From an uncultured Acidobacteriota bacterium (lineage in GTDB: Bacteria > Acidobacteriota > Thermoanaerobaculia > Gp7-AA8), in NCBI GenBank assembly GCA_963734155.1, contig CAVTGG010000009.1:15871-79870 (forward strand): a DNA stretch of 64,000 bases. Direction: 5' to 3'. The position numbers and the translations under genes were made by a program. This document shows positions 38,605 to 46,421 of this stretch, in pieces. The notes under the pieces were generated by a model. It did no database searches and had not been told where the DNA came from. It saw nothing but the letters and a program-made list of their open reading frames with translations. Numbering within the stretch: the stretch's first letter is position 1; each line of letters starts with the position of its first letter.

Positions 38605-39612
38605 TCAAAAAATTCTCCACCACGGCCGTGATTTCGGAGGCGGCGACGGGTCGAAATCCCAGGGAATCATGAAGAATGTCTCCGACCAGAGCCCGCATCC
38701 GATGCAGGTGAACTGAGTGGAGAGCGCACGATCCTCTTCCAGGACCTCGCCGTGGCCGTCCCTGATGCTCGCCAGGTGTGCGGCTTCGTGCAGCAGGACC
38801 GCCGGAAGGCAGCCGCAGAGTGTGGGTTTATTGAAAACCGTCGACAGCGTGCTGCTTTGATGAAGATAGAGATTGGAACTGCCGTCGCGCTGCACGCTGC
38901 CGCATACGTCCGATCGCTCGGAGATCGTGCAGGAAATCTCGGCGTTCAGCAGTTCGTTGCGCACCTTCTCGCGCACTCTGCACGGGAGGCCGCTGCAATG
39001 CGCCACGGCAAAGACGGCGGTCCTCATGGCTTCGTTGATCTGGGGCAGAATCCCGCGGCAGGACATGTCGACAGTCCAAAGGCCGAGGGGATCGATCTGT
39101 CGCAGAGGATTTTCGTTTGTGTACGCGAACGGACTCGCTCCCGAAGGACCGGCCGCGTCGGGCTGCGAATAGCGGCTACGCCGCGCGTCATACCAGCGGG
39201 CGACGTTGTACGCGCGTTCGTCTGCAGCCGAATCCTGTTCCTGACCGGGAAAACGAAGCGGCTGGCGCAGAGCTGCGCCGGTGCGGATCTGCGCGGCTCC
39301 ATAAGGTTCATACTCGGCGCGCCACACGACCGCGCCATCCGCGCCGGTCTGGAGCGTCGGTGTGCCGAGGTGATCGCTGAAAGTCCAGCGGACGGCCGGC
39401 GCGGAGGCGTCGAATTGCGCTACCGGCAGTTCGCCAAACCAGACATATTCGTGTGCAATGGGCGGCTGCGCGTCGGACGACAGCGCGGTCTCTGCAATCA
39501 GACGCACGTCGGATGAATAGATCGACAGGCGCCGGTCTCCCGGCTCGCCGGCCATTGTGCGAGCGGCCATTGCCGTGGACAAGAGGAGCGCAGCGAGCAG
39601 CGGTCGTTTCAT
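38605..39612 (-). CDS. Signal peptide + Rhs core + HExxH metallopeptidase-like tip (cassette 3)
   Basis: MKRPLLAALLLSTAMAARTMA; SDHLGTP, YEPYG, LRFPGQ, IDPLG; VLLHEAAH. Confidence 0.85.
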   Translation of the reverse strand: MKRPLLAALLLSTAMAARTMAGEPGDRRLSIYSSDVRLIAETALSSDAQPPIAHEYVWFGELPVAQFDASAPAVRWTFSDHLGTPTLQTGADGAVVWRAEYEPYGAAQIRTGAALRQPLRFPGQEQDSAADERAYNVARWYDARRSRYSQPDAAGPSGASPFAYTNENPLRQIDPLGLWTVDMSCRGILPQINEAMRTAVFAVAHCSGLPCRVREKVRNELLNAEISCTISERSDVCGSVQRDGSSNLYLHQSSTLSTVFNKPTLCGCLPAVLLHEAAHLASIRDGHGEVLEEDRALSTQFTCIGCGLWSETFFMIPWDFDPSPPPKSRPWWRIF

Positions 39613-39615
39613 GGC

Positions 39616-44500: not shown

Positions 44501-46421
44501 AGATCGCGGAGAGGGTTCCTCCGCTGTACTGGAACTGCCACACGGCGCCGTTGCTCAGCGTCATCCTCTCGATGCGCGCGCCGGTGGCGACGATCATGAT
44601 GCTGCGGCCTTCGCTGTCCGTCACGGAGGCGAGATTTCCTGAACCGTCCCACGAAGCAACGATCTTGTTGTTCCAGAGGTCGGTCGTGGAGAGCCAGTGG
44701 CCCGTCGCCGCATCGAACGCGCGGACGGTGCCGGAAAGGTCGCGCAGGCGAAGCTCCGATCCGACGCGTGTGACGACTTCATAGACGTCCGATGGGCTCG
44801 TCGACACATAGTTTCCGCCGCTGCCGCTGTAGAAGCGTTCCCGTCCGCTCTCGTCGACTCCGTAGAGATGCGTCTCGTCGAGCATTCGTAATGTCTGGTT
44901 GAACGGATGCGTCCAGCCCGGCGCAATCTCGCCGGCCAGCGAAGGAAAGGCAGGACGGGAGCTGTGATACGCGAGGCCGAACGACAGAGGGAGCGGAGTC
45001 TGAGACACATGGAAGAGCGGGAGGTCCAGAGACACATCTCCCGATCCGTAATTGACGGGACGCCCCGGTTTTTCGCAGGAGTCGCGATCCCGCTTGCAAA
45101 GCTCCTCCGGCGCCTGCGTCTTGGACGTGGCGGTGAAATTCGGGTCAGTCCCCCGGCCGCAGGCGATGGCGACCGCGAGGATCTCATGGCAGCCGGCGAT
45201 GGTGGTCTGAACGACCCCGCTCGACTGCAGGCACTCCGCGCCCGGGCCACAGGCAACTTCGCCGAAGGCGCCGACCAGGACTCCATCCTGGTACAGATTG
45301 ATCCGCCGCTGCAGCGGACTCTTTGTGTTCGGGAACGTGTATTGGATGGAGGCCGTGTACTGGTCATTGGAGCTCAGGCCGGACGTGGACACAGAGACCG
45401 TCGGCTTCGAGTTCGCCACGAACGTCGTGGACGCCTCCGCGGCGTGGGTCGGGTGGCCGTCGTTACACGCTCGCGCGCGGAACGTGATGGTGTGTGTGCC
45501 GACCAGGCACGACGAGTCGAAAAACTGGTCCGGCGCCTCCGGGTAGGTGAGCGAGCCGCTCGCCCCGGAAGGATTCCAGGTCTGTTGGATCACGCCGTCG
45601 ATGAGCAGCGACACGGTGTTGAAGGAGGTTCCGTGGAACTCGTAATCCCCTTTGATCTTGCTGTTCCCATCGGCGCCCTGAATGAACTGCACGTTGCGCA
45701 CACGCGGCGTGGAGTCGATATTGACGCGGACCGTGGCTCTCGAGCTATGAAGGGGGTCGGCCTCGTTCGCGCCGCAGGCGACGGCAATGACCTCGATATC
45801 CAGCGGACCGGTGAGCCAGCACGCGAACTCGAACTCCGGCGACCAGGTTCCTGATTGCGCCGCAACGTCGGCGACCGTGGCTTCCCCGAGACCGCCCACA
45901 TCGACCGCTCGCACAATCAGACGACGCGACGCCGCAATGATCGTGTTCGGAAATGAATAGTTCACATCGAGTTTGAACCTGTTCCGCAGCGGATCGAGTC
46001 TCGTCGCACTGACGCTGACGGTGGGCTTCGTATTGATCTGAACAATCGTCGTGGGCGAGACCTGCGTCTCCAGAACGCAGGACTTGTTGCCGCTCTGGTC
46101 GCTCACGCTGTTGTGGCACCTGGTGAAGGCGTACACGGCCAGGGGCCCGGTCAGGAAGCACGAGACGTTCAAGCTCGCGGTCACACTGCACTCGCCGCCC
46201 GCGGGACAAACCTTCCGCCCGAACTCACCGACGCTGGTGTTCAGGGTGACCTCGGTGGACCCGCACGTTCCTCCGCCGCCCGTGGCGGTCGCGGTGAGCG
46301 TGGACCCGACGAGGGACACATTCGACAGTTGTGCGGAGCACCCGGCGCGCGCCTGAGGCGTGAAGAACGCAGCAACCAGGAGAAACAGGAACAGACGGCT
46401 GGCATGGGCGAAAGGACGCAT
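41574..46421 (-). CDS. Secreted Rhs/YD shell protein lacking the Rhs core (signal peptide, Cys-rich Ig-like repeats, DUF6531, YD repeats, C-terminal Ig-like domain)
   Basis: MRPFAHASRLFLFLLVAAFFTPQARA; GRPVNYGSGD..GWTHPF; many YDxxG repeats ending YGYDGRGLR; no DHLG or DPxG core motifs. Confidence 0.9.
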   Translation of the reverse strand: MRPFAHASRLFLFLLVAAFFTPQARAGCSAQLSNVSLVGSTLTATATGGGGTCGSTEVTLNTSVGEFGRKVCPAGGECSVTASLNVSCFLTGPLAVYAFTRCHNSVSDQSGNKSCVLETQVSPTTIVQINTKPTVSVSATRLDPLRNRFKLDVNYSFPNTIIAASRRLIVRAVDVGGLGEATVADVAAQSGTWSPEFEFACWLTGPLDIEVIAVACGANEADPLHSSRATVRVNIDSTPRVRNVQFIQGADGNSKIKGDYEFHGTSFNTVSLLIDGVIQQTWNPSGASGSLTYPEAPDQFFDSSCLVGTHTITFRARACNDGHPTHAAEASTTFVANSKPTVSVSTSGLSSNDQYTASIQYTFPNTKSPLQRRINLYQDGVLVGAFGEVACGPGAECLQSSGVVQTTIAGCHEILAVAIACGRGTDPNFTATSKTQAPEELCKRDRDSCEKPGRPVNYGSGDVSLDLPLFHVSQTPLPLSFGLAYHSSRPAFPSLAGEIAPGWTHPFNQTLRMLDETHLYGVDESGRERFYSGSGGNYVSTSPSDVYEVVTRVGSELRLRDLSGTVRAFDAATGHWLSTTDLWNNKIVASWDGSGNLASVTDSEGRSIMIVATGARIERMTLSNGAVWQFQYSGGTLSAIFDPLHTGAVAWRTFVYQNNSRNEPRLLTAMRDDGGALVEGHAYDATDRGITSFLENNRELVTLEYDQPSAGQTRVTQTIDDQKSQTTIFTLVYLGGRYRATRIDGGCGSCGIFSDSEQREYDARGNMVRVVAADGSVTLRTFDASGRLLSRTEAAGTPIQKTVSFEYGVAIWPSFVTKITEPASIGARVTTHQWTGMDSVPAGKSVLTTTVSGAIGSSGNITYTTTSSFDGRHRLVMTDGPRTDVKDVSTITWYTDNDPNADRRGRMSSVTNPVGLTATWDNYDLYGTARARRDANGVLTTVATDLIGRTTATTSEPVPGVPAEAVPYTNTWQFDSRDRLVETASAAGHRVRSSYENGTNLLIDTTVLDSSGNERERRHLTRNVIGDIVREELQSCGTPAPVCGSWTTARTENYEFDTHNRRTQIIHADNSRKIFTYDAMGRPLTEQDETHSAPNTAYAYDARGHLTTVTSTLGTGTAVTQYEYDIAGKMVTLVDPNGNATHFEYDDFGRLLSTDSPVTGLTTTDYDQAGNVKTTTHANASYTSWTWDAANRLIEQDSFGAVTRPVPGRPGVRTGETIQWFYDQSFDKIVAGATFRRGRPASMVDPTGTTTWTYDRRGLIAAERRTIEKADYSTSFGYDGDGNRTRINYPSGRIVNYTFDYAGRPYSAASGPTSIVTSASYLPFGPVRQLVFGNGTTQTMNFDNRYQIVQNKLTGMSGTLADYAYTHDAAGNVQSIHDSIDPAWNRDFGYDDLHRLVRADTGAGLWGQGAYQYDAMGNMLSLSLGASRNATFQYAGSTPLLTSVTENGETRGVAYDASGNEIGVGDSSFSYSPRNKLTSAGGKVYGYDGRGLRTTTTVGEETVLKVSLAPASLTAGASAAVTISLANPAPAKGLAVALRADSTAIRVPATIRIPAGKTTATVHVVAKAIRKATPVTITAASRDERASVRLMVRPAVNVPVALPVALPVALMEERP

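Follow-up and report, generated by a model that had tools for sequence, protein, structure and literature searches.

Rhs proteins have a conserved C-terminal region that spirals into the cocoon, seals one of its ends and bears an aspartyl autoprotease with a PxxxxDPxGL motif (PMC8765631). In the Tc (ABC) toxins, two proteins with separate genes, TcB and TcC, make up the Rhs-repeat cocoon (PMC8765631), and the second of them, TcC, comprises the seal, the aspartyl autoprotease and a variable toxin (PMC8765631, PMC7861908). Here we describe a four-gene locus on the reverse strand of a 64,000-nucleotide stretch of DNA, hereafter the window, from an uncultured Acidobacteriota bacterium of the Thermoanaerobaculia (GenBank assembly GCA_963734155.1, contig CAVTGG010000009.1, positions 15,871 to 79,870 of the forward strand). 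Its first gene encodes an Rhs shell without a core, and the three genes behind it, called cassettes 1 to 3, each encode a leader, an Rhs seal/core and a tip. The best-supported reading, which we consider reasonably probable from sequence and modelling, is that of a naturally split Rhs (YD-repeat) container, whose shell and seal/toxin cassettes would join in trans.

By analogy, TcB/TcC is the closest functional precedent for such an arrangement. A genome may hold several TcC genes with different toxins. The likeness has limits, as Tc proteins are cut mid-shell and TcC brings much of the shell, whereas a window cassette brings only ~155 seal residues. The shells of the window's genome lack the SpvB, TcdB_mid and beta-propeller families in Pfam, and both partners here carry Sec-type leaders, whereas Tc release proceeds through the type 10 secretion system (PMC13018210). 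The search of the genome for a TcA partner through VRP1 gave no match, but its control matched nowhere, making the result uninformative. The original prediction had taken Rhs containers to be single chains; this overlooks the Tc cocoon of TcB and TcC (PMC8765631). Given this precedent, a seal supplied in trans is a variant of a known theme and introduces no new principle.

The canonical Rhs effectors, such as the T6SS (type VI secretion system) effector RhsA of Pseudomonas protegens, RhsP and Tse15, share with the locus the YD shell, a DUF6531-type plug, a polymorphic tip and a C-terminal seal with a PxxxxDPxGL-type autoproteolysis motif, and our cassette model matches their C-terminal parts. 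In the window, however, separate polypeptides carry the shell and the seal, a Sec leader takes the place of a PAAR or VgrG mounting at the N-terminus, and no immunity genes are adjacent. Orphan rhs C-terminal cassettes (C-terminal displacement) are likewise tandem core-plus-tip modules downstream of an Rhs gene, but they have no export signal, are accompanied by immunity genes and usually resemble the main gene in their upstream sequence; the window cassettes show none of these traits. WapA of Gram-positives and the bacterial teneurin-like proteins also combine N-terminal Sec export with a YD shell that holds or bears a toxin (PMC13018210, PMC12704120), whereas these are single chains with adjacent immunity genes, and the TTR/FN-plug/NHL superfold of the teneurin-like proteins has no Pfam match on the window proteins. 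The paper nearest to the window system is the one on these Sec-exported teneurin-like proteins, again single chains with immunity genes (PMC13018210). The locus is therefore not a canonical single-chain Rhs, because the core is off the shell chain, nor a set of orphan cassettes, because each cassette has its own start and leader and no main gene bears this core, nor a T6SS Rhs effector. Our literature searches found no description of a split, leader-bearing Rhs core cassette, and no mention of Rhs together with Thermoanaerobaculia.

The shell protein matched DUF6531 with 32.3 bits, above the cut-off of 24.1 (Pfam), PF05593 (RHS_repeat) at 1.4e-45 (Pfam) and TIGR01643 at 4e-24 (NCBIfam). In contrast, the NCBIfam search found no match of the Rhs core TIGR03696 on the 1615-residue chain; this core sits on the three separate genes, on each of which it scored 56-73 bits against a cut-off of 32.5 over residues ~100-178. 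The shell chain runs to YGYDGRGLRTTTT and then continues into a tail of ~110 residues. The tail was modelled as an eight-stranded beta domain with a predicted local distance difference test (pLDDT) score of 85.8, and the model resembles macroglobulin and immunoglobulin-like (Ig-like) domains, with 14 Protein Data Bank (PDB) chains at E<=1e-3. At the sequence level, no Pfam family fitted the tail (LapA alone, E 0.095), and no PDB sequence matched below E 0.1. Thus, Pfam, NCBIfam and the translation bear out the earlier claim of a 1615-residue gene with a leader, DUF6531 and YD repeats but no core.

The coordinates of the open reading frames (ORFs) likewise confirm four intact, closely packed genes, as originally described: the shell gene and cassette 1 share a 4-bp overlap, cassettes 1 and 2 are 18 nucleotides apart, and cassettes 2 and 3 are 3 nucleotides apart. 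A hidden frameshift fusion of the shell with cassette 1 was ruled out, as the cassette 1 frame, when followed upstream through the shell tail, is an Arg/Gly-rich off-frame sequence. A consensus scan, which is weak evidence, found no coding-strand terminator inside the operon. A search of public reads gave only one soil-metagenome run, with 0.16 of the sampled words, and no RNA source was among those listed, which is evidence neither way.

The cassette leaders, scored with a feature heuristic, consist of one or two K/R residues followed by a 10-residue hydrophobic core (mean Kyte-Doolittle value 2.3-2.7), with small residues at -3/-1 around residues 20-22. In the three window cassettes, the leader stretch is free of acidic residues. 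The mature cassette chain opens directly with R-x-S-x-Y-x-PE-x-LLAE. In the core, D151, D174 and P175 are invariant in all 15 aligned sequences, and DPxG(L/T) is present in all nine cassettes of the genome. The two aspartates, 23 residues apart, presumably match the catalytic pair described for TcC. The prediction that each cassette combines its own leader with an Rhs core bearing DPxG was therefore upheld, by heuristic leaders in 9/9 cassettes and by the TIGR03696 scores.

The arrangement recurs in the same genome (6.5 Mb, 17 contigs, 97.6% complete). Of its 22 TIGR03696 matches, nine are short leader-bearing cassettes, and these form three loci of three, on contigs C9 (the window), C17 and C1, with each array behind a core-less shell. 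The shells of C17 and C1 comprise 2233 and 2176 residues and continue after YLYDGRGVRTT with several Ig-like repeats, a PKD domain and a further region of ~500 residues. The junction between the shell and the first cassette is a 4-bp overlap at all three loci (GTGA in the window, ATGA in the other two), while the remaining junctions are gaps of 3-24 nucleotides, plus one further ATGA overlap. The leader features are found in 9/9 cassettes. In phmmer comparisons, the nine cassettes matched each other with E values of 1e-51 to 1e-107 and the genome's other Rhs cores with E>=1e-7; no other Rhs of the genome carries the cassette core type. Because two more loci share its layout, the locus is not an artefact. 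Of the genome search that had been proposed, for leader-plus-TIGR03696 genes behind a core-less YD gene, one part succeeded, with these two further loci of the same genome, while the related genomes yielded none among the hits inspected.

Two observations concern the paralogous loci. In the C1 shell gene (2887-9417, reverse strand; locus L024), ~100 residues look off-frame where the C17 paralogue has Ig-like repeats, which suggests a compensated double frameshift. Immediately upstream of the C17 shell lies an ORF of 260 codons (11993-12775, reverse strand; locus L023) without a Pfam family; it is a second copy of that shell's leader and Cys-containing domain, ending before DUF6531.

To place the cassettes among their relatives, the first 180 residues of cassette 2 were searched against 41 related genomes (E<=2e-35). 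Outside the window's genome there were 24 matches, 17 of them in open frames of 1282-2997 residues, and the alignments start at about residue 17-24 of cassette 2, that is, directly past the leader. Among seven relatives' genes that were inspected, two are canonical, for example with YAYDGRGIRTVTTTVTGERYSLYTPE and YAYDGRGIRTVTTTVTGERYSLYTPELALLAE, and five hold the shell, an insert, the core and a tip in one frame, the core starting 300-1200 residues after the last shell repeat. In at least three of these five (L038, L042 and L043), the insert shares its Ig-like repeats with the tail of the window shell. In two further loci from the genome-contig scan (L052 and L056), an end domain of the C17/C1 type (...DVxGYFA) is followed by the core within ~10 residues.

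A database search with the last 466 residues of the shell gave a similar picture: in 95 of the best 120 hits, the core lies in the same chain as the shell. For 89 hits with a recognisable shell-end motif, the distance from the shell end to the core is at least 300 residues in 70 and below 60 in 18, although the query took in the Ig-like tail, which biases it towards forms with an insert, and some hits may be misplaced by the motif rule. The source names of the single-chain hits point to Thermoanaerobaculia (Acidobacteriota). Many single-chain Rhs proteins of this class (L041-L043, L038 and L046; P0074-P0186) have 300-1200 residues between YDGRGxR and the seal, occupied by three to six Ig-like repeats and sometimes by a PKD domain or a ~500-residue domain ending in DVxGYFA. 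We found no description of this insert-bearing architecture in the literature. Its members P0074, P0076 and L041-L043 are the direct unsplit relatives of the locus: their shells are 33-55% and their cores 44-55% identical to those of the window, and the same Ig-like repeats follow YDGRGxR. They differ in being one chain, in which a low-complexity linker replaces the stop codon, the start codon and the leader.

The existence of single-chain relatives with the same shell, Ig-like insert and core identifies the locus, at the level of sequence, as a gene fission at the boundary between insert and seal, in which the C-terminal piece gained a leader. By the same comparison, the Ig-like tail is the remnant of the insert between the shell and the seal. 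The Ig-like ending noted at the outset is thus supported by the modelled fold, but it is an insert remnant and not an odd ending. Without its own leader, a C-terminal piece would remain cytoplasmic and never meet the shell; the leader is therefore what a functional fission of a Sec-exported protein requires. One database protein, P0073 (1660 residues), is 61% identical to the end of the shell and stops ~40 residues after YEYDGRGLRTTTT; it may be another core-less shell.

We modelled shell residues 660-1500 together with residues 23-180 of cassette 2. All three runs reached an interface score (ipSAE) of 0.91, as compared to 0.00 for the best of three controls, with 227-238 contacts, contact agreement of at least 94% between runs and a partner pLDDT of at least 89. 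Shell residues 1490-1500 contact cassette residues 23-32, and the inner wall of the shell (1260-1480) contacts the core. The model shows the cassette seated as the last strands of the shell and as its plug, a seam that is compatible with binding without being proof of it. The cassette 2 model thus agrees with the barrel completion that had been anticipated for a shell-cassette structure prediction. The original inference of separately exported, interchangeable parts that join in trans is supported, though only indirectly, by the leader-like N-termini of all nine cassettes, by the single-chain relatives, by this model and by the unrelated tips.

These models also bear on the idea that the cassettes are free-standing secreted pro-toxins, in which the core would be only a self-cleaving pro-domain, while the shell acts alone as an adhesin or an empty container. 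Each cassette has a leader, both aspartates and DPxG, which by its sequence could be enough for export and self-cleavage, and when cassette 3 was modelled alone, the first half of the core was predicted with confidence (pLDDT 84-91 at residues 30-100). However, the protease half (residues 100-170) reached only 42-64 in that model, as compared to ~90 beside the shell in the cassette 2 complex. The cassette 3 model matches the C-terminal parts of RhsP, RhsA, Tse15, TcC and teneurins (32 chains at E<=1e-3; best match RhsP 8h8a, E 5e-7), and this region lines and seals the shell in solved Rhs proteins (PMC8765631). Furthermore, in all three arrays the first cassette overlaps the end of a core-less shell gene by 4 bp, and the relatives hold shell and core in one chain. 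Free-standing pro-toxins therefore appear unlikely, though deserving of some weight.

Outside the genome, 11 leader-bearing cassettes were found, all of them metagenomic proteins (P0005, P0007, P0010, P0012, P0013, P0014, P0192, P0200, P0261, P0263 and P0294). The database version of the leader heuristic had flagged 19 of 147 sequences (133 new representatives and 14 from an earlier search); on inspection by eye, P0248 was dropped and P0294 added, and P0002 and P0006 are the same protein. A maximum-likelihood tree was calculated in quick mode from 84 core regions, sampling, besides the cassettes, 45 of the 95 fused hits (the first by identifier), seven fused relatives' genes and 12 short leaderless proteins. 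The nine cassettes of the genome, 10 of the 11 metagenomic ones and the fused P0088 form a clade with a support of 98 in the Shimodaira-Hasegawa-like approximate likelihood-ratio test (SH-aLRT), within which cassettes of the genome and metagenomic cassettes intermingle. Constraining 19 leader-bearing cassettes to one clade was not rejected by the approximately unbiased test (p-AU 0.60). The leader-bearing cassette P0263, which has an HExxH tip, falls outside the main clade and may represent a second origin.

The ratio of nonsynonymous to synonymous substitution rates (dN/dS) of the core is 0.21-0.30 in all seven pairs, and that of a tip common to the C17 and C1 loci is 0.185. The leaders are only 14-29% identical, while their character is kept. 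The low dN/dS, the interleaving with metagenomic members and the preserved leader character therefore indicate persistence under purifying selection rather than recent decay, and the locus is real and probably functional. That the locus is instead decaying or recently broken, a non-functional fission whose pieces are heading to loss, could be suspected from the rarity of the form outside the genome and from the frameshifted appearance of other Rhs genes in the assembly. Yet three loci with nine cassettes are all intact, the substitution ratios are low in both the core and the shared tip, the leader character survives in 9/9 cassettes despite the divergence, and the SH-aLRT 98 clade implies that the form has persisted and diversified; we accordingly judge decay to be improbable.

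Scarcely different in plausibility, and if anything a shade weaker, is the proposal that the genes are classical silent orphan cassettes stored for recombination, with incidental leader-like N-termini. Tandem core-plus-tip modules behind an Rhs gene are indeed the classical orphan layout, and true orphan arrays of the same core type occur in two related genomes, at L037 (G026:C47) and L038 (G022:C40). However, the orphans at L037 and L038 lack a leader and carry a copy of the insert sequence that lies upstream in the main gene, in contrast to the window cassettes, which have a start codon and a leader. In addition, the window shell has no core to recombine with, this core type is absent from every other Rhs of the genome, and the tips are followed by gaps of only 3-24 nucleotides without immunity genes. 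An assembly or sequencing artefact, in which a single indel splits one continuous gene, is very improbable despite the frameshift-like breaks elsewhere in the assembly and the lack of junction-bridging reads, given that the same junction occurs at three loci, that cassettes 2 and 3 follow complete tips and so could not be joined to the shell by any indel, that reading the alternative frame upstream of cassette 1 gives only junk, and that leader-bearing cassettes are present in independent public assemblies.

Several points weigh against a naturally split container. The leaders were scored by an ad hoc feature heuristic, not by SignalP; in a control with 85 core domains from metagenome loci, a similar rule flagged four, all of them inside long ORFs. 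The modelled complex contained a truncated shell and no tip, and its ipSAE mark is one that 58 of 80 solved complexes attain, but also 2 of 110 mismatched pairs, a calibration that holds only roughly here because we used our own alignments. A pass in this assay is also expected for the halves of a split gene, by likeness to the solved single-chain Rhs proteins, and threading a tip into a separately made shell is a real topological problem. The link between a cassette and a core-less shell is shown in this genome only, and six of the 11 metagenomic cassettes lie on contigs of 1.5-3.4 kb, too short for a neighbouring shell. No further leader-bearing cassette was found in 40 related genomes, where seven short-frame hits arose and the three inspected are classical orphans without a leader (G009:C696 and G023:C246 were left uninspected, and one frame was seen of the three short G026:C47 hits). 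None was found among 400 other genomes of the class (query P0013), nor in 26 genome loci, nor in 80 metagenome loci with 85 cores. The unpublished genomes G002 and G156 enter these tallies as rows and support no claim. Finally, other Rhs genes of this assembly show frameshift-like breaks, and no listed read-derived piece bridges the junction at 41574-41577, although these pieces are short identical fragments and thus no evidence either way.

If the locus is a naturally split container, its ancestor would have been a Sec-exported single-chain Rhs of the type common in Thermoanaerobaculia, with a signal peptide, an N-terminal domain, a DUF6531 plug, a YD shell, an Ig-like or other insert, a seal with an aspartyl autoprotease and a toxin tip, in this order. 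The chain would have been cut at the boundary between insert and seal, and the C-terminal piece would have gained a start codon and a Sec signal peptide and multiplied into three cassettes with different tips. One operon would make the shell and the cassettes, with cassette 1 translationally coupled to the shell, and the shell and each cassette would be exported unfolded through Sec and lose their leaders. Once outside the cytoplasm, a cassette could pair its first strands (R-x-S-x-Y-x-PE-x-LLAE...) with the last shell strand (YDGRGLRTTT), and the remaining core could spiral into the shell and seal it in the way TcC seals TcB, enclosing the tip. The two conserved aspartates would then cut after DPxG(L/T) and free the tip, so that one shell type could be loaded with any of several payloads. 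In its full form, this proposal describes a two-part Rhs cocoon assembled outside the cytoplasm, with separate Sec passage and a strand-pairing lock, in which any of the nine cassettes loads any of the three shells and immunity to the payloads, of which several are probably zinc proteases, is unnecessary since they are never folded in the producer cytoplasm; to this we give about an even chance.

The cassette tips are unrelated to each other, at 17-32% identity, and so differ as originally claimed. Across the nine cassettes of the genome, the tips contain 5-9 Cys in 127-161 residues, as compared to 0-1 Cys in the leader and core, and six of the nine, including those of cassettes 2 and 3, carry HExxH. 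Six of eight queries had no Pfam match at E<=1, the tips of cassettes 2 and 3 had none even at this limit, two tips of the C17 locus had only sub-threshold matches (DUF3750, 0.078; PSCyt3, 0.17), and NCBIfam found the core but no tip family on the cassettes. In a language-model feature atlas, the cassette 1 tip gave nothing above 0.81, whereas the cassette 3 tip led to the M85/GtgA/M91 zinc proteases (0.90, with 125 shared features), which is to be taken as a lead only; cassette 3 also had a weak Foldseek match to the aspzincin AsaP1 (E 0.04). A homologue of the cassette 3 tip is found on a canonical fused Rhs from a metagenome (L132), and the tips are therefore ordinary Rhs payloads. Their composition suggests that they are most likely disulfide-bonded enzymes acting outside the cytoplasm, and several are probably zinc proteases.

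Action outside the cytoplasm would explain why there are no immunity genes between the cassettes. The gaps in the window (18 and 3 nucleotides) leave no room for them, and the next gene downstream is a LytTR response regulator; several fused relatives have small ORFs downstream. A search of the genome, which is 97.6% complete, gave no match to the T6SS sheath gene VipB; this result is in line with export through Sec and not with delivery by a T6SS. One unrelated PAAR ORF is located away from the locus, on contig C1.

Table 1. Features of the four-gene Rhs locus in the window (positions are those of the window).
Feature	Position	Strand	Remarks
Shell gene	41574..46421	-	1615 aa; Sec-type leader, N-terminal Cys-containing repeats, DUF6531 plug, YD-repeat shell, Ig-like tail
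Shell signal peptide, residues ~1-26	46344..46421	-	MRPFAHASRLFLFLLVAAFFTPQARA, followed by G; read by eye from the translation
DUF6531, residues 453-528	44838..45065	-	N-terminal plug-type domain of Rhs proteins; Pfam match
YD/RHS-repeat shell, residues ~529-1497	41931..44837	-	ends in YGYDGRGLR; profile matches; aligns with shells of single-chain relatives
Ig-like beta-sandwich tail, residues ~1504-1593	41643..41912	-	modelled fold; homologous to repeats between shell and core of single-chain relatives
Shell/cassette 1 start/stop overlap	41574..41577	-	GTGA; arrangement of translational coupling; ATGA at the same junction in two paralogous loci
Cassette 1	40621..41577	-	318 aa, GTG start
Cassette 1 leader, residues 1-21	41515-41577	-	leader heuristic
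Cassette 1 seal/core, residues 22-178	41044-41514	-	D151; DPQGT at 174
Cassette 1 tip	40624-41043	-	7 Cys, without HExxH
Cassette 2	39616..40602	-	328 aa
Cassette 2 leader, residues 1-22	40537-40602	-	leader heuristic
Cassette 2 seal/core, residues 23-178	40069-40536	-	DPIGL at 151, DPLGL at 174
Cassette 2 tip	39619-40068	-	9 Cys, HEALH at 297
Cassette 3	38605..39612	-	335 aa
Cassette 3 leader, residues 1-21	39550-39612	-	leader heuristic
Cassette 3 seal/core, residues 22-178	39079-39549	-	DPLGL at 174
Cassette 3 tip	38608-39078	-	9 Cys, HEAAH at 275; may have a zincin-type fold

The surroundings of the locus are unremarkable. It is flanked downstream by the LytTR response regulator and a His_kinase-type sensor (35668-38506, reverse strand) and upstream, on the other strand, by a tryptophan-biosynthesis-like row of GATase, Glycos_transf_3, IGPS and PALP enzyme genes (46755-50904, forward strand); in neither flank was a secretion or immunity gene found next to the locus. 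Elsewhere in the window, a large second Rhs-like gene (16435-26970, forward strand) combines Big_5, RHS repeats, a core and an HNH-nuclease tip. It seems to be broken over at least three frames, as the repeats switch to a different frame over 22297-23116, and in the frame at 23116-26970 the GC content at third codon positions (GC3) makes the first ~400 codons look off-frame; it appears to be either a pseudogene or the product of assembly indel errors. Two giant surface-type proteins are also encoded on the forward strand, one of 1326 residues with F5/8 type C and LVIVD repeats (2173-6150) and one of 2692 residues with Big_13, Big_3 and Glucodextran_B Ig-like repeats (7355-15430).

The cocoons of Rhs, Tc and teneurin proteins are studied as devices for protein encapsulation and delivery. 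If the proposed reading is true, the locus would provide the first natural Rhs seal supplied in trans and a ready-made modular encapsulation system. A separately exported module of seal plus cargo would make loading and sealing testable by mixing or co-expression, and would mark the boundary between shell and seal as a genuine seam of assembly. In addition, the Sec-exported Rhs proteins of Thermoanaerobaculia with long Ig-like or PKD inserts between shell and seal emerge as a large group that is so far undescribed.

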